This document shows, one piece after another, positions 3,068 to 60,212 of a stretch of 64,000 nt of DNA; position 1 is the first letter of the stretch, and each line of letters opens with the position of its first letter. This stretch comes from an uncultured Solirubrobacterales bacterium. Lineage in GTDB: Bacteria; Actinomycetota; Thermoleophilia; Solirubrobacterales; Solirubrobacteraceae. Where the stretch lies: the NCBI GenBank assembly GCA_963785205.1, contig CAWAUJ010000002.1, forward strand, positions 37,436-101,435, given 5' to 3'. The position numbers and the translations under genes are program-made. The notes beneath the pieces were generated by a model. That model searched no databases and was not told where the DNA came from. It saw nothing but the letters and a program-made list of their open reading frames with translations.

Positions 3068-3670
3068 GTGACTGACGCCGCGGACTTCGAGCGCTGCCTG
3101 GCCGATGGTGGGGTGGTGGTGTTCCCCGCTGACACGGTGTACGGCCTGGCCTGCGACCCGCTGAACGCGGAGGCCGTGGAGCGGCTTTACGGCCTCAAGC
3201 GGCGGGCGCTCGGTAAGCCGAGTGCCGTGATGTTCTTTGCTGTCGAGCAAGCGCTGGAATCGCTGCCCGAGCTTGGCGATAGGACCCGTGAGGCCATGGC
3301 CCGGCTGCTGCCCGGGGGTCTGACGCTGCTCGTGCCCAACCCGACGCGCCGTTTCCCATTGGCCTGTGGCGAGGACCCGGCGTCGCTCGGTGTCAGGGTC
3401 CCCGCGCTCCGCTGGGCGGCCGGGGTGAGACGCCCGGTTCTGCAGTCCAGCGCCAACCTCGCCGGCCGCCCAGATCCGCGGCGTTTGGCGGACGTGCCCG
3501 ACTCGATCGGCGCTGGCGCCGACCTGATGATCGATCACGGCGAGCTCCCGGGAACCTCCTCGACCGTGGTCGATCTGCGCTCGTACGACGAGAACGGCTC
3601 CTGGTCTGTCGCACGGTCCGGAGCAGTGGACACCGAGCAGTTGGTTTCAATCCTCGGGCCCAAGCCTTAA
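3068..3670 (+). CDS. tsaC: L-threonylcarbamoyladenylate synthase (YrdC/YwlC/Sua5-domain protein)
   Basis: 200-aa ORF with GTG start. VVFPADTVYGLACDP and SSANLAGRP motifs typical of the YrdC fold. Conserved position downstream of prfA-prmC. Confidence 0.8.
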   Translation: MTDAADFERCLADGGVVVFPADTVYGLACDPLNAEAVERLYGLKRRALGKPSAVMFFAVEQALESLPELGDRTREAMARLLPGGLTLLVPNPTRRFPLACGEDPASLGVRVPALRWAAGVRRPVLQSSANLAGRPDPRRLADVPDSIGAGADLMIDHGELPGTSSTVVDLRSYDENGSWSVARSGAVDTEQLVSILGPKP

Positions 3671-4760: not shown

Positions 4761-5438
4761 TCAGCCGCTCAGCTGGTCGAAGTAGCGCTCGAACAGGACT
4801 CTGGCCGCGTCGTCGGCCTGGCTATCGCGCTCGCGGGTCTCGGCCAGCAGGGCTTCGGCGTCGATATTTCGCAGCGCGAGCGTCCTGCGGTCGACCTCCA
4901 GCCACTGCTCGATCATGTCCGCCGTCGCCTCGGGATGAAACTGAATCCCCAGATGCCGGCCCCGGGAGAACGCCTGGGGCGCCTCGTCCGTCCAGGCCAG
5001 GGGAACCGCTTCCGGCGGCCAGTCAAATGTGTCCTGGTGCCAGGTGAGCCACGGGCCCGGCGGGATCCAGGCCGCCGCCTCGGAGCGAGCAATCATCTTC
5101 CACCCCACCTCGGGCGCGTCGGCCTTGTGCACCTCCGAGCCGAGTGCGCGAGCCAGCATCTGTGCGCCGAAGCAGATCCCCAGGATCGGCACATCTGATT
5201 CGACCGCCCGGCGCACATACTCGTGCTCCTGGGCCACCCAGGGCACGGAGTCGTCATAGGCCGAGTCATCGGAGCCCAAGACGATGGCGAGGTCGTACTG
5301 CCCGGGCTCTCCGAGCGACCCGATTTCGTTAGGCGTCACGATCTCGGCCGAGATTCCCCGTGAGGCCATCGGTCCCTCGACGCGAGCCAGCGGGCAGCTG
5401 GGGTCGTTCTCAAAGACGAGTGCCTTCATCGTCTCCAT
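4761..5438 (-). CDS. class I glutamine amidotransferase-like protein (GuaA-type GATase1)
   Basis: 225 aa. Nucleophile elbow ILGICFGAQMLA and HxE-like GIQFHPE near the C-terminus. Confidence 0.75.
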   Translation of the reverse strand: METMKALVFENDPSCPLARVEGPMASRGISAEIVTPNEIGSLGEPGQYDLAIVLGSDDSAYDDSVPWVAQEHEYVRRAVESDVPILGICFGAQMLARALGSEVHKADAPEVGWKMIARSEAAAWIPPGPWLTWHQDTFDWPPEAVPLAWTDEAPQAFSRGRHLGIQFHPEATADMIEQWLEVDRRTLALRNIDAEALLAETRERDSQADDAARVLFERYFDQLSG

Positions 5439-6504: not shown

Positions 6505-7800
6505 GTGAGCGTCGAGCTACCCGCTGACTACTTCAACCGGCCCCTGGCCGAGGTGGACCCGGACATCGCCGAGGCCCTGGCCTCCGAGCTCGATCGCCAG
6601 CAACGCACGCTGGAGATGATCGCCTCGGAGAACTTCGTGCCCCTGGCCGTGCTCGAGTGCCAGGGCTCGGTGCTGACCAACAAATACGCCGAGGGCTATC
6701 CGGGGCGGCGTTACTACGGCGGCTGTGAGTTCGTCAACGTGGCCGAGCAGCTGGCCATCGACCGGGCGAAGGAGCTGTTCGGGGCCGAGCACGCGAACGT
6801 CCAGCCCCATTCCGGAGCCACGGCCAACGCCGCCGCGTTCCACGCCCTGATGCAGCCGGGCGACACGCTGATGGGGCTCGAGCTGGCGCACGGCGGCCAC
6901 CTCACCCACGGGATGCGGATCAACTTCTCCGGGCGTCTGTACGAGATCGCCGCTTATCAGGTCGACCGTGAGACGAGCCTGATTGACATGGACGGCGTGC
7001 AGCGCCTGGCCGAGGAGCGCCGGCCGAAGGTGATCCTGGCCGGCTGGTCGGCCTATCCACGCGTTCTTGACTTCAAGCGCTTCCGCGAGATTGCGGACTC
7101 TGTCGATGCCTACCTGGTGGTGGATATGGCCCATTTCGCCGGGTTGGTGGCTGCTGGGCTGCACCCCGACCCCGTCCCATATGCGCACGTCGTGACAACC
7201 ACGACTCATAAGACGATCGGCGGTGGCCGGGGCGGGCTCATCCTGTGCACCGAGGAGCTGGCCAAGAAGATCGACTCCGCCGTGTTTCCGGGCCAGCAGG
7301 GCGGGCCGCTCGAGCACGTCATCGCCGGTAAGGCGGTTGCCCTGCGGATCGCCGCGTCCGAGTCGTTCCGTGAGCGACAGGAGAGGACGCTGGTCGGGGC
7401 AAAGGCGCTGGCCGAGCAGCTGCTCCGGGCCGGCCACGGCGTGAGCGTGCTCACGGGTGGCACGGACGTGCATCTCGTGCTGTGCGACCTTCGTGAGTCT
7501 CCGCTGGACGGCAAGCAGGCTGAGGACCGCTTGGCCGAGGTGGGGATCACCGTCAACCGCAACGCGGTGCCATTCGATCCGCGGCCACCCGCCGTGTCCA
7601 GCGGGCTCCGGATTGGAACCCCGGCGCTGGCCACGCGAGGGCTCGGCGAGGAGGACTTCGTCGAGGTCGGCAAGGTGATCGCGGAGGCGCTGACCGCCGA
7701 GGATTTCGAACAGCGACGCGGCGAGTTGACCGATCGCGCAGCCCACATCGCCGAGCGGTATCCGCTCTACGAGAGCCTCCGGCCCGCGGCCGCTGTCTAG
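6505..7800 (+). CDS. glyA: serine hydroxymethyltransferase
   Basis: Strong SHMT motifs ([37 protein letters not shown]; [16 protein letters not shown] with the PLP lysine). In-frame GTG at 6505 fits the usual N-terminus; the ORF track starts at 6415. Confidence 0.93.
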
Positions 7801-55468: not shown

Positions 55469-56482
55469 CTAGGGCTGGAAGCGGTAGATCGCTCCCAGCT
55501 GGGTGGCACTGACAGCCGTCTGCGCCACGTAGACCCAGCCCTTGTTCACGCCCAGGCCAACGATGTTGCTGCCCTTGGCGAAACCGCTGAGCTCGGTCCG
55601 CGGATTGCCCCCCGCCAGGGGGATCGAGACCACCTGAGCAGGACCACCCACTCCAAACTCGGAGATGTAGAGGCGGTTGCCCAGGATTCCCAAGCCCATC
55701 GCATCGGTGTGCGGCGTGAAGAACTGAAACGGCTTCGCGTAACCGTTGCAGGTCCAGGCCGCCGTCCAGTTGCACTTGGGGAAGCCGTAGTTCTGGCCCT
55801 GCTTGACCTTGAGCACGAAGTCAGGCGGGTTTGTGGCGCCCATGTCCTGGCCCAGATCGCTCACGTACGGCGTCTTGGATCCCTTGGCGAACGCGAACTG
55901 CCAGGGCTGGCGCATGCCTTTGGCAAACACCTTCACCTGCTTGCCCGACGAGGTCATCGACAGGATGTCGTACTGGTAGGGCGCCGTGGCCGGCCCATGG
56001 TCATTCGTCTGGCCGACGTCCACGCCGGCATAGAGCCGGCCGTCCGAGCCGAAGGCCAGACCGTTGAACGCGGGGAAACCCTTCGGGGCCTTGTAGATCG
56101 TCTTTTGCTTGGCGAACTTCGTGCCGTTCCACCCGCTCCAGGCCTCAATGCTCGTGGGCGTGCTCACGTAAAGAGAGCCCTTGTAAAAGGTCACGCCAAA
56201 CGAGAACACGGGCGAGCCCGCGAGCTTTACCGCCTTGCCGCCCTTGATCACGTAGACACCACCGATCCCGGCTGCCTGCTGCGGCGGCGTGCCGTCGCTG
56301 AAGAACACCTGACCGTCGCCGAAGGCAAAGGCGGTCGGGGTGGCGACGTTCGAGGCCACCAGCTGGGCGGCCTTGCCCTTGGGAGTTGTTGGTCCTGTCT
56401 TGCTGGCTGCACCGGCGCTGGCGGCCGCCAGGCCGCCGGCCATGGCCAGCACCAGCGAAATCTTCCCTGCGCGTCTGAGCAT
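55469..56482 (-). CDS. secreted beta-propeller protein, PQQ-dependent sugar (glucose/sorbosone) dehydrogenase-like
   Basis: Signal peptide KISLVLAMAGGLAAASAGAAS. Repeated blade-like segments; MRQPWQFAF and QNYGFP motifs resemble the soluble GDH-B/sorbosone dehydrogenase family. Confidence 0.5.
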   Translation of the reverse strand: MLRRAGKISLVLAMAGGLAAASAGAASKTGPTTPKGKAAQLVASNVATPTAFAFGDGQVFFSDGTPPQQAAGIGGVYVIKGGKAVKLAGSPVFSFGVTFYKGSLYVSTPTSIEAWSGWNGTKFAKQKTIYKAPKGFPAFNGLAFGSDGRLYAGVDVGQTNDHGPATAPYQYDILSMTSSGKQVKVFAKGMRQPWQFAFAKGSKTPYVSDLGQDMGATNPPDFVLKVKQGQNYGFPKCNWTAAWTCNGYAKPFQFFTPHTDAMGLGILGNRLYISEFGVGGPAQVVSIPLAGGNPRTELSGFAKGSNIVGLGVNKGWVYVAQTAVSATQLGAIYRFQP

Positions 56483-56574
56483 GCGTCCTCCTTATCAGAA
56501 GTAGTTCGGTCCCAGGGGCCCCCACCCCAGAGTGTCGAGGATAGCGGGAGTCGGGAGTCAGCCCCGTGCTGTGC

Positions 56575-56646
56575 CCGGACGGTGCATGCACCGTCCGGAG
56601 GGGCGGCACATGTGCCGCCCCTGGTGGGCGCGCATGCGCGCCCACC
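56575..56646. repeat. three contiguous perfect 24-bp palindromes, each centred on CATG
   Basis: 56575-56598 CCGGACGGTGCA|TGCACCGTCCGG; 56599-56622 AGGGGCGGCACA|TGTGCCGCCCCT; 56623-56646 GGTGGGCGCGCA|TGCGCGCCCACC. All verified base by base. Confidence 0.95.
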
Positions 56647-56654
56647 CGCCCCCG

Positions 56655-56709
56655 CTCCAGCGCTGGCCCGCTCGGCATCCAGCCTCGCCACGACCGGGCC
56701 GCGCTGGAG
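56655..56709. other. long imperfect hairpin (15 bp in two stem segments with one bulge, 24-nt loop) following the palindrome block
   Basis: CTCCAGCGC-t-GGCCCG ... CGGGCC-GCGCTGGAG. Lies 51 nt upstream of the nadC ATG. Confidence 0.6.
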
Positions 56710-56759
56710 TCATCCAGCTGCACGGGGGCGAACACCCCTATCTACAATCGAGGCCAGGC

Positions 56760-57602
56760 ATGCTCGACGGGCGCAAGAGCTTGATCGCAGACGTGGTCGC
56801 CCGGGCGCTCGCCGAGGACGTGGGGGAGGGGGACGTGACGACCGCGGCCACGGTGCCGGCCGATGCCCACGCCCGGGCCCGGATCACCCAGAAGGCCCCG
56901 GGCGTCGTGTTCGGCCTGGATCTGGCCGAGGAGACCTTTCGCCAGCTCGACCCCGAGATCGTCTCTAGGTGGCTGGTGGAAGAGGGACTGTGGCGCTCGG
57001 ACGGGCCGGTGCTCGAGCTCGAGGGCTCGGCTCGGGCCATCCTGACCGGCGAGCGCACCGCGCTGAACTTCCTCCAGCGCCTCTCAGGCGTGGCCACGAT
57101 GGCGGCGCGAGCCAGCCAGGCCGTGGCCGGGACGGGGGCAGAGATCCTCGATACGCGTAAGACCACGCCCGGCCTGCGGACGCTCGAGAAGGCCGCGGTG
57201 GCCGCCGGTGGCGCCACCAACCACCGAGCCGGGCTCTACGACGCGATCCTGATCAAGGAGAACCACGCCGCGCTCGCCGGGGGCGTCGGAGCGGCCGTCC
57301 GGGCGGCCCGGGATCAGGCCCCAGGGCTCCCGCTGGAGATCGAGTGCCGCACGCTCGAGGAGGTCGACGAGGCGCTGGCCGCGGGGGCCGACTGGATTCT
57401 CCTGGACAACATGGACCCGGCGGGGCTCCGAGTGGCGGTGGAGCGCGTGGCCGGGCGGGCCAAGCTCGAGGCCAGCGGCGGGGTGACGCTCGAAAACGTG
57501 GGGGAAATAGCCCGCACCGGCGTAGACTTCGTGTCGTTGGGCGCGATCACGCACAGTGCGCCCGCGCTTGATCTGTCCCTGATTCTCGAGCCCTTGCCAT
57601 GA
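56760..57602 (+). CDS. nadC: nicotinate-nucleotide pyrophosphorylase (carboxylating)
   Basis: ATG 56760 lies inside ORF 56532..57602. ALAEDVGEGDVTT, GERTALNFLQRLSG, DTRKTTPGLR, IKENH and LDNM motifs. Confidence 0.93.
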   Translation: MLDGRKSLIADVVARALAEDVGEGDVTTAATVPADAHARARITQKAPGVVFGLDLAEETFRQLDPEIVSRWLVEEGLWRSDGPVLELEGSARAILTGERTALNFLQRLSGVATMAARASQAVAGTGAEILDTRKTTPGLRTLEKAAVAAGGATNHRAGLYDAILIKENHAALAGGVGAAVRAARDQAPGLPLEIECRTLEEVDEALAAGADWILLDNMDPAGLRVAVERVAGRAKLEASGGVTLENVGEIARTGVDFVSLGAITHSAPALDLSLILEPLP

Positions 57603-58561
57603 ACCTCCCGATGCTCGGTGCCCTCGACGCACCCCTGATGCTGGAGAACATCCCGGCCCTCCAGGAGGAGATCCGGTCCCTGGCCGCCGAGCGCGACGCC
57701 CTGATCCTGGCCCACAACTACCAGCTGCCTGAGATCCAGGACGTGGCCGACTATGTGGGGGACTCGCTGGGGCTCTCCCAGCAGGCGGCCGCCGCGGAAG
57801 CCGGGACGATCGTCTTCTGCGGCGTCCATTTCATGGCTGAGACCGCTTCGATCCTTTGCCCTGACCGGAGCGTGCTGATCCCCGATCTCGAGGCCGGCTG
57901 CTCGCTGGCCGACTCGATCACCGCTGAGCAGCTACGGGACTGGAAGGCGCAATTTGATGATCCCGCCGACCCTCCGATCGTGGTCATGTACGTGAACACG
58001 ACGGCCGAGGTCAAGGCCGAGACCGACTACTGCTGCACGTCAGCCAATGCCGTCCGGGTGGTCGAGCACATCTATCGCGAGCACGGCGAAGACGTCGAGA
58101 TCCTGTTCGGCCCGGACATGTTCCTCGGCGCCTATGTCGAGCGCACCCTCGGTCGCCCGATGCACGTCTGGGACGGCGAGTGCCACGTCCATGCCGGGAT
58201 CAGGCCAAGCGACATCGCGGCCGTGCGGGCTGCCAACGCGGGCGCGGACTTCCTCATCCACCCCGAGTGCGGATGCTCGACCAGCGTGATGGAGTACGCC
58301 GCCGCCGGCGACCTCGACCCCGAGGGCGTGCACATGCTCTCGACCGGCGGGATGCTGCGTTATGCGGAGCGGATGCGAGGGGGGACGGCGATCGTGGCCA
58401 CGGAGGTGGGGATGCTTCACCCGCTCCGTCAGGCCGCGCCGGACAGCGAGTTCATCGCGGCCAACGAGGCCGCCCACTGCCGGTTCATGAAGATGATCAC
58501 CCTGCCCAAGCTGTGCGAGTCCCTGCGGGCGGGGGTGCACGAGGTTCGGGTCCCGGCCTGA
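57599..58561 (+). CDS. nadA: quinolinate synthase
   Basis: ATGA overlap with nadC. ILAHNYQLPEIQDVADYVGDSL, FCGVHFMAETA, and Cys ligands (CSLADS, HPECGC, EAAHCRFM). Confidence 0.93.
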   Translation: MNLPMLGALDAPLMLENIPALQEEIRSLAAERDALILAHNYQLPEIQDVADYVGDSLGLSQQAAAAEAGTIVFCGVHFMAETASILCPDRSVLIPDLEAGCSLADSITAEQLRDWKAQFDDPADPPIVVMYVNTTAEVKAETDYCCTSANAVRVVEHIYREHGEDVEILFGPDMFLGAYVERTLGRPMHVWDGECHVHAGIRPSDIAAVRAANAGADFLIHPECGCSTSVMEYAAAGDLDPEGVHMLSTGGMLRYAERMRGGTAIVATEVGMLHPLRQAAPDSEFIAANEAAHCRFMKMITLPKLCESLRAGVHEVRVPA

Positions 58562-59040: not shown

Positions 59041-59306
59041 GGGGGCGGAGCGAGGTGTGGGGCGGATGGAGTGCCGGGCGCGTGACGAAAGCACCGCGGC
59101 TTGCGACGGAAGTGCAATTTGTGGTGATGGAACGGCGACACCTGGGGATAGGGGCGGGACCCAGGGGTGATCATGCAACGAGTGATCCTCCAGAACCGGC
59201 ATAACGCAGCACAGCTCGACCCCCGTGGGCGTACGTGCTGCGTAACCGCGCCTATAGCCGGCAGAACGCAGCACGTAGCCGGGCGACGCGGTCGCTGGTC
59301 TGCGTA

Positions 59307-60212
59307 ATGCCGGTGCGACCGGTGGACGCGGCTGAGCTCGTGCGCCTCTCCCGAGCTCAGCACGGAGCGCTCAGCCGGCAGCAGCTATGCGACGCCGGCC
59401 TCAGCCGTCATTCGATCGACGCCCGTGTGCAGCGCGGCCGACTGGTGCGCCTCTTCCCGGCCGCGTATGCGGCCGGTGACCCCCAGCTGATGCCGTTGGT
59501 TCGACCCGCCGCCGCCCTGCTTTCCCTCGGAGAAAGGTCATATCTCAGCCACCGCTCTGCCGCCGCACTCTGGGGCATGACCGACGACCAACCGGACGCG
59601 ATCGACGTCACCGTCGTCGGTGGCAGCCCGCGACCCCGCTTGGGGATCTGCCTTCACCGCCTCAAACACCTTCACCCCGCGGACACAGCCACCCACTCCA
59701 ACCTCCGCCTGACCGCGCCCGCCCGTACGCTGATCGACTTCGCGGCCCAGGCGACCAGCTCCGAGCTCCACGACGCGTTCGGAGAAGCGCGGGCCAACGG
59801 GTTGCTCTCCGACGCCGCGCTGACCGCCGCCCTCGAGCGGGCGCCAACGAACCACCCCGGCGCGGCGATTGTCAGGGCCATCTGGCGGGACGGCGGGACC
59901 TACGACCGCTCGAGGGCGGAGCGCATCCTCAGGGGACTCTGCCGCCGGGGCCAGCTCCCACAACCGCTGGTCAACGCCCGCCTTCATGGCTTTCGTGCTG
60001 ACTTTTACTGGCCGGACGCGAAGCTGATTCTCGAGGTGGATGGCTATCTGACCCACGGCGGCCGGCTCGCGTTCGAAACCGACCGCCGGCGCGACCAGGT
60101 CCATACGGCCGCCGGCTTCGTCGTTCTCCGCGTCACCTGGCGCCAGCTCAAGGACGAATCGCTTGCTGTATTGGTGCGGCTTGGCCAGGCGATGGCCCGC
60201 CGCGCGGGCTAG
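59307..60212 (+). CDS. AbiEi-like N-terminal domain / C-terminal DUF559 (Vsr-like endonuclease fold) protein
   Basis: N-terminus LSRAQHGALSRQQLCDAGLSRHSIDARVQRGRLVRLFPAAY. C-terminus ADFYWPDAKLILEVDGYLTHGG...DRRRDQVHTAAGFVVLRVTWRQL. Confidence 0.7.
   Translation: MPVRPVDAAELVRLSRAQHGALSRQQLCDAGLSRHSIDARVQRGRLVRLFPAAYAAGDPQLMPLVRPAAALLSLGERSYLSHRSAAALWGMTDDQPDAIDVTVVGGSPRPRLGICLHRLKHLHPADTATHSNLRLTAPARTLIDFAAQATSSELHDAFGEARANGLLSDAALTAALERAPTNHPGAAIVRAIWRDGGTYDRSRAERILRGLCRRGQLPQPLVNARLHGFRADFYWPDAKLILEVDGYLTHGGRLAFETDRRRDQVHTAAGFVVLRVTWRQLKDESLAVLVRLGQAMARRAG

Follow-up and report, generated by a model that had tools for sequence, protein, structure and literature searches.

The three abutting palindromes that lie between nadC-nadA and a divergent gene in the 64-kb stretch of DNA analyzed here (the window) belong to a family of at least ~200 arrays, each composed of 3-8 abutting 22-24-bp palindromes, which two pattern scans located at unrelated loci in Solirubrobacterales. 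The family is apparently undescribed, since a full-text literature search returned no description of it and it goes unmentioned in a survey of perfect inverted repeats published in 2026. We consider it probable that these arrays constitute a REP/BIME-like, Solirubrobacterales-specific dispersed hairpin-array element that acts at the DNA level.

The palindrome block upstream of nadC

An initial annotation of the window, made from its letters alone, had described three perfect, abutting, CATG-centered 24-bp palindromes and had deemed their chance occurrence negligible. Reanalysis confirmed that each of the three units is its own reverse complement, is 24 bp long and is centered on CATG, and that the units abut without any spacer (Table 1). 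No other perfect palindrome in the window has arms of 10 nt or more, the next longest arm being 9 nt, and, as had been reported, no second copy of the block was found in the 64 kb. With 67% G+C, a 12-nt arm arises at any given site with a probability of 2.2e-7, which translates into 0.014 expected instances per window, and 100 shuffles of the window produced a total of two palindromes with 12-nt arms. For three abutting palindromes of this arm length, the chance expectation drops to ~7e-16 per window, in line with the earlier judgment. Given this expectation, the recurrence of the family across sequencing projects with different contig-naming styles and the conservation of arrays at orthologous sites, we assign virtually no weight to the notion that the block is a product of chance or an assembly artefact. 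The predicted fold of the block comprises three 10-bp hairpins with 4-nt loops, both as single-stranded DNA (-45.5 kcal/mol, z -5.4) and as RNA (-76.4 kcal/mol, z -5.0), reproducing the 10-bp stem and CAUG loop previously proposed for each unit.

All three units have counterparts in other genomes. The 24-mer of unit 1 recurs identically in arrays of at least seven of them (L100, L102, L162, L167, L175, L182 and L194), near-identical copies of unit 2, with sequence CGGGGCGGCACATGTGCCGCCCCG, are found in L176, L188 and L198, and units similar to unit 3 are present in L089, L094, L097, L141 and L156. The stretch adjoining unit 1 was assigned, based on its similarity to the family consensus, as a putative A-end flank.

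Table 1. Palindromic units, putative flank and neighboring genes, with positions in the window.
Feature	Coordinates	Strand	Remarks
Unit 1, class A	56575..56598		CCGGACGGTGCATGCACCGTCCGG; core GGTGCATGCACC; perfect 24-bp palindrome; 10-bp stem, CATG apex
Unit 2, class B	56599..56622		AGGGGCGGCACATGTGCCGCCCCT; core GCACATGTGC; perfect 24-bp palindrome; middle of conserved module
Unit 3, class E (variant of class C)	56623..56646		GGTGGGCGCGCATGCGCGCCCACC; core GCGCGCATGCGCGC; perfect 24-bp palindrome
Putative class-A-end flank	56566..56574	-	Outward GCACAGCAC; 7/8 match to family consensus AACAGCAC
p337, divergent 337-aa gene	55469..56482	-	Secreted-looking; weak GSDH-like beta-propeller match; neighbor outside element
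nadC, quinolinate phosphoribosyltransferase	56760..57602	+	Pfam QRPTase_N/C, E 3e-57; neighbor outside element
nadA, quinolinate synthase	57599..58561	+	Pfam NadA, E 1e-98; overlaps nadC stop

Pfam searches identified both nadC and nadA next to the block, as annotated, and remeasurement returned the same distances as before, with 114 nt separating the end of the block from the nadC ATG (56760) and 93 nt separating its start from that of the divergent gene (56482). Database searches with the exact NadC and NadA proteins returned no identical entry, and the best NadC identity anywhere was 79%. The divergent gene was also upheld, but the one match found in favor of its earlier "PQQ-dehydrogenase-like" label, to GSDH, lies below threshold (E 0.003, 17 bits vs a cut-off of 25).

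The block sits between two divergent gene starts, no terminator-like structure was detected in positions 56300-56900 and no T-run follows the block, all of which agrees with the previous contention that it is not a terminator for either flanking gene. A consensus scan of the same intergenic region (56300-56900) detected no sigma-70-type promoter. A -10-like TACAAT element is located at 56743-56748 (+), 11 nt before the nadC ATG; its position suggests a near-leaderless nadC mRNA, in which case the block would probably lie upstream of that promoter. On the opposite strand, a TATCCT sequence occurs at 56538-56543 (-), ~55 nt before the start of p337, which is equipped with a strong ribosome-binding site (AAGGAGGA). 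Two further features were observed in the vicinity. Between the array and nadC, a 14-nt inverted repeat (56655-56668 / 56696-56709; 86% complementary, 27-nt spacer) includes a 10-bp palindrome, CCAGCGCTGG, that is unrelated to the CATG family. Downstream of nadA, the ORF at 59235-60212 (+) presents weak AbiEi antitoxin and DUF559 domains and is possibly a defence or toxin-antitoxin-related gene.

A dispersed family of palindrome arrays

The search for copies elsewhere that had been proposed with the initial annotation was performed with two patterns, and it returned arrays in abundance. A GTDB genome scan with the pattern GCATGC..CACATGTG..GCATGC yielded at least 118 stretches; among the matches listed, 116 of 118 are triple-or-longer palindrome arrays in Solirubrobacterales-type MAGs, and the other two come from different taxa, contain no palindromes and match the pattern by chance. 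The second pattern, consisting of four GCATGC cores at 24-bp spacing with no requirement for a B unit, contributed 83 further arrays. All those with a taxonomic label map to Solirubrobacterales or unclassified Actinomycetota MAGs and the rest are in loci with 65-73% G+C, while 35 matches to this pattern in other phyla proved to be plain direct tandem repeats.

Arrays are scattered along chromosomes, among them complete Solirubrobacterales chromosomes such as OY970221.1, OY970247.1 and OY970204.1. Their copy number is low: unbiased samples contain ~1 array per 1-2 Mb, and rich genomes reach ~3 per Mb. In ~2.3 Mb of loci that had been retrieved for different purposes, one or two arrays were present, and the two restrictive patterns detected at most seven arrays on a 2.25-Mb contig. 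Viral contigs yielded no pattern matches, and BLAST searches of plasmid and phage collections returned no matches to the array; a phage or plasmid origin was rejected on these grounds. Searches of the window and of 18 array loci yielded no Rfam family at its gathering threshold. The weak matches obtained (ftsZ-DE, with 27.7 vs 72.2 bits, che1 and RsmW) were dismissed as generic GC hairpins, and arrays located beside ftsZ or flagellar genes also remained below those thresholds. We likewise discarded CRISPR, given that the units differ from one another, are whole palindromes and abut without spacers, and that no cas-like genes are present among the flanking clusters. Avoidance of CATG due to restriction-modification was rejected too, as the observed/expected ratio of CATG outside arrays is 1.02.

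The units follow a tightly defined architecture. Among the matches listed, ~94% of the ~980 units examined are perfect over 11-nt arms, and 96-97% are centered on CATG; units repeat every 24 bp in 69% of cases and every 23-26 bp otherwise. Units share a conserved YR-CATG-YR apex, with CGCATGCG, CACATGTG or TGCATGCA as cores and mostly G/C in the next two pairs, and positions 7-12 from the unit center vary freely. Pairing holds at 98-100% in positions 1-11 and 84% in position 12, and its collapse to 6% at position 13 delineates a sharp 24-bp unit edge. In a set of 150 distinct units, 98.3% of cells are paired, as opposed to 55% in shuffles, and double-sided changes are observed at all 10 pairs (601 cells; none of 500 shuffles as high), with G·U making up ~1% of pairs. 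Mismatches in imperfect units are mostly transitions and are commonest at the central A/T, which is unable to pair. The fact that both arms change together indicates that it is intrastrand pairing, in a hairpin or cruciform arm, or the templating of one arm by the other, and not duplex sequence that is preserved, and this covariation rules out plain duplex operator half-sites.

Units can be grouped into classes A, B and C, with D, E and F as variants. The order C/E/F/D-B-A is the commonest, appearing in 85 of the 127 B-centered triples among the matches listed, with E-B-A accounting for 13 of the 127 in this same set, and the A-B-E block of the window is the minimal three-unit form of this module. 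The class-A end is often followed by AACAGCA (AACAnCA consensus), whatever the orientation of the neighboring gene, and an AACnnCA flank is found at ~20% of array ends, again independently of gene orientation. The end opposite class A is often preceded by GGAA. Since loci that are otherwise unrelated share this class order and these end flanks, modules of several units must have been copied as a whole to new sites.

Other structural traits were apparent in parts of the family. The core of class B, CACATGTG, can be read as CATG inserted at the center of CATG, and class B arms resemble class C arms shifted by 2 nt, suggesting that B units may have derived from a C-type unit into whose dyad 2+2 nt were symmetrically inserted. 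In a minority of arrays, a longer A-end flank, AACAnCATCAGCTTTTTTCAAGCATG, is followed by half units. It takes the form AACAnCATCAGCTTTTTT(C)AAGCATGYG, in which an A+T-rich stretch replaces one unit arm and degenerate units come after, and it was observed at L148 (~3560-3600), L178 (~190-230), L143 (~7040-7080 and 6766-6880), L120 and L191 (~4920-4950), with L143 containing three tandem 38-nt copies of CATCAGCATTTATAAGTCATGCGGCGTCGATCTCCGAT. This longer flank is possibly another module of the element, acting as a promoter or an end. Pairing between arms of adjacent units is slightly weaker than with shuffled partners (-8.6 vs -9.1 kcal/mol), and an attenuator-like switch was discarded because adjacent units show no excess of cross-pairing.

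Genomic context, gain and loss of arrays

After trimming ORF starts, all arrays are intergenic, and their gene context (99 tandem, 45 divergent and 32 convergent) is near random for intergenic DNA. The genes next to them are unrelated housekeeping genes, such as fbiC-like, ftsZ, gcvT, flgG, lon, glmU, rpsF and acyl-CoA dehydrogenase genes, and clustering of the 214 flanking proteins produced 155 groups of similarly ordinary function. No recurrent transposase was detected among the 30 largest flanking-protein clusters inspected. Searches with tblastn, using approximate RAYT-like and IS200-like queries, revealed no RAYT/IS200-like ORF in the window or in ~1.8 Mb around ~200 arrays, with a RAYT-like ORF in the unrelated locus L453 (E 8e-13) providing a positive control. 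Neither the flanking-protein clusters nor the RAYT/IS200 search near arrays identified a mobilizing or binding protein.

The polarity of the arrays shows no bias with respect to transcription (20:24), to the facing gene end or to local GC skew (76:71, the 8-kb skew being a noisy proxy). Lagging-strand-targeting elements of the IS200/REP type are often biased with respect to GC skew. In co-directional contexts, G·U and A·C mismatches on the sense strand are in balance (8 vs 9), with no excess of the former.

The initial annotation had also put forward an operator array for an NAD-biosynthesis regulator and part of a structured leader as candidate functions for the block. We compared nadC loci from 80 genomes (all Solirubrobacterales, with at most 79% NadC identity) and 80 metagenome loci, and none of these 160 relatives presents an array at nadC, so that the conserved locus upstream of this gene contemplated in that annotation was not encountered. 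Five loci (L002, L011, L012, L015 and L029) retain the p337-nadC synteny, with shorter intergenic regions and no unit. In L040, a triple of CATG-centered 24-bp palindromes, with CACATGTG as the core of its middle unit, lies ~8 kb from nadC, just after an HPF-like gene. The lack of units in the five syntenic relatives and in the 80 metagenomic nadC loci points to a lineage-specific acquisition of the nadC copy.

The location of the block upstream of nadC-nadA is what speaks for an operator array or leader through which an NrtR/NiaR/NadR/NadQ-type regulator would control nadCA. This explanation is very hard to uphold in the face of the 160 array-free nadC loci, five of them with the same divergent pair, of the presence of the element beside fbiC, ftsZ, gcvT, flgG, lon, rpsF and other unrelated genes, and of the covarying arms, which are not expected of operators. 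Restriction of the element to the NAD regulon was rejected based on the syntenic loci devoid of arrays and the copies beside unrelated genes, and the structured leader found no backing in a family that displays neither an orientation preference nor tolerance to G·U on the sense strand. To judge from these comparisons, the block was inserted between two divergent promoters in a lineage-specific manner and has no specific link to NAD. Its local role would be, at most, that of a structural or topological element, and a local topological effect or a barrier between both promoters is a matter of conjecture.

Many arrays have orthologs in other species; these are embedded in flanks that are 75-95% identical and maintain the class and order of their units. 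Across 198 pairs of orthologous units, we observed 376 compensated differences vs 47 one-sided ones, and divergence amounts to 28% at positions 7-12 and ~5% at positions 3-6. The arrays of L189 (6356-6393), L195 (4661-4698) and L163 (5374-5428) include over-long perfect palindromes, whose arms measure 15-19 nt and which have spread over the neighboring unit as template switching predicts. Upstream of fbiC, an array is present in 9 of 80 orthologous loci. Among these loci, and in each case at about positions 1350-1500, L279 contains five units, L280 (94% aa identity) has two and is missing a three-unit E-B-A block, and in L281 (90% aa identity) a half unit, CCGGACGGCAC, is all that is left. This series directly displays either loss unit by unit or the insertion of a module, and it shows that arrays come and go as whole units over the time that separates species. 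Comparisons of L040 with L031/L048 and at the fbiC locus revealed deletions, but no target-site duplication and no clean pair of filled and empty sites at high identity.

Two additional observations concern individual loci. In five fbiC loci (L094, L108, L119, L187 and L195), GTCATAGACTC is conserved 7-10 nt before the fbiC ATG, as would fit a -10 element (TAGACT) giving rise to a leaderless fbiC mRNA, and the last unit of the corresponding arrays is located ~8 nt upstream of GTCATAGACTC, at the -35 position. In L258, positions 24-79 form a 56-bp perfect palindrome (arm 28, center ATAT) at the very end of a metagenome contig; possible explanations are a hairpin end, an assembly artefact of the fold-back type and an unrelated element.

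Candidate mechanisms and relation to known repeats

The scarcity of wobble pairs, the absence of an orientation preference and the location of about one quarter of the arrays between divergent genes argue for a constraint that operates on DNA, and not on one transcript. Under the REP/BIME-like reading that we favor, the element would work and spread as DNA hairpins, which would either fold in single-stranded DNA while it is replicated or repaired, or be extruded as cruciforms by negative supercoiling. Cruciform extrusion of a 24-bp G+C-rich palindrome is costly in vivo. A mismatch in one arm would be copied or repaired from the other, through quasi-palindrome template switching or arm-to-arm gene conversion, and such correction from the opposite arm would account for the near-100% Watson-Crick complementarity of the units, with selection for the hairpin possibly adding to it. 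Quasi-palindromes are known to undergo template switching, a mutational process through which imperfect inverted repeats become perfect (PMC7202029). Such switching would lead to fast, fully compensated divergence with few mismatched intermediates and occasional extension. It would explain the rare mismatches, the rarity of G·T and the extension into neighboring units, but it is a process and not an element, and the apex, the unit length and the spread to new loci are left unexplained by it. The conserved apex and fixed unit length, which go beyond template switching, imply recognition by a mobilizing enzyme or a binding protein. A putative protein of either kind would read the RCATGY apex. 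Arrays are removed again by unit-wise deletions. Unlike in a purely selfish, decaying element, the apex is kept in old orthologous copies, which suggests some selection or recognition at each locus.

A function at the RNA level, in which transcribed, very stable GC hairpins would shield mRNA ends, terminate transcription without a U-tract or act as insulators, along the lines proposed for REPs, strikes us as rather unlikely. Each unit can form a 10-bp hairpin, the block reaches -76 kcal/mol as RNA, perfect palindromes are compatible with orientation independence and many arrays are found a few nt after stop codons (median 37 nt), including those located after the HPF-like gene in L040 and after ftsZ in L138. 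The arrays lying between divergent genes, the one in the window included, have however no 3' end to protect, and G·U pairs, which are normally common in selected RNA stems, are confined to ~1% of pairs and show no excess on the sense strand (8 vs 9). The lack of a T-run after the block and of any Rfam family above threshold add to these difficulties.

We find it less plausible still that the arrays are duplex binding sites for a dimeric nucleoid or insulator-type factor contacting a 12-14-bp core, with the outer palindromy as a by-product of template switching. The strong conservation of YRCATGYR and 2-3 flanking pairs, the regular 24-bp spacing, the low copy number and the persistence at orthologous sites are all in keeping with such a factor. 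A protein reading the core, however, needs neither outer arms that covary up to a sharp edge at position 12 nor units that abut exactly, at least three unit classes in fixed order are hard to square with a single dimer, and the arrays are dispensable at any given locus (9 of 80 at fbiC). Somewhat ahead of both these alternatives, and still tentative, is the idea that the arrays represent a new class of structure-coded cis-site, in which a dedicated Solirubrobacterales protein would read the RCATGY apex displayed by rows of DNA hairpins or cruciform arms, arm-to-arm conversion would maintain the stems and C-B-A modules would be copied as such. The dedicated reader could be a structure-specific recombinase, an HUH-like mobilizing enzyme or a cruciform-binding supercoiling sensor or insulator between transcription units.

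The initial annotation had listed a REP/BIME-like cluster among its candidates, and the comparison with described repeats indicates that this was the right kind of object, even though the GTAG/CGTC tag, the high copy number and the nearby RAYT gene that go with REPs were not found. Like REP/BIME arrays, the family is made up of extragenic stem-loop units (22-24 bp here, 20-40 bp in REPs) that are often clustered in variable number (PMC3733652, PMC3116915, PMC8266576), and both are dispersed on the chromosome, are lineage-specific and vary in presence/absence between relatives. The roles proposed for REPs encompass supercoiling, termination and mRNA stability (PMC3733652, PMC3116915, PMC8266576). 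REP units carry a conserved GTAG (or CGTC) tag at one end (PMC3733652), whereas the units described here lack this tag and present instead an outward AACAGCA flank (inward TGCTGTT), with internal units abutting; a GTAG-containing variant of this flank, TGTAGTT, was seen at a handful of ~230 ends. The units also differ from REPs in being perfect palindromes without a loop spacer and in having stems that differ between units and covary, as opposed to a single consensus, with unit classes arranged in a fixed order (C/E-B-A). REPs reach tens to hundreds of copies per genome, in contrast to the few arrays per Mb found here, and no RAYT/IS200-like gene was found within ~4-8 kb of ~200 arrays using approximate queries.

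Similarities with other hairpin systems are more limited in scope. Mitochondrial hairpin elements, double-hairpin elements and GC clusters are also short, G+C-rich intergenic repeats without a transposase (PMC2800124), and mitochondrial hairpin repeats resemble the family in occurring singly or in tandem and in keeping their stems through compensatory change (PMC2800124). They are nonetheless organellar/eukaryotic, and have neither perfect 24-bp palindromes with a CATG apex nor a fixed class order. Integron attC sites and IS200/IS605 or REP hairpins, which are read by structure-specific enzymes, share with the family a folded single strand, a small conserved motif and otherwise free, covarying stems, but those sites are imperfect hairpins with extrahelical bases that lie beside cassettes or transposase genes, and no integrase or HUH gene was found near the arrays. 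MITEs combine terminal inverted repeats with a target-site duplication; in the family, the two short end flanks (GGAA... and ...AACAGCA) do not form an inverted pair.

The Solirubrobacterales, actinobacteria that abound in soil, have been studied almost solely through MAGs. Annotation of their genomes will confuse the arrays with operators, terminators, small RNAs or CRISPR-like repeats, and the arrays are likely hot spots for assembly and polymerase errors. With ~1000 units examined, 94% of them perfect, full stem covariation and few wobbles, the family provides an unusually clean natural data set. It can help to address how DNA hairpins are maintained, be it by templated correction or by selection, whether cells make use of short G+C-rich cruciform arrays and how hairpins spread without a transposase. 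If the structure-coded reading were true, it would constitute a clean natural case both of modules (C-B-A) being copied as a unit and of concerted evolution within a 24-bp palindrome.
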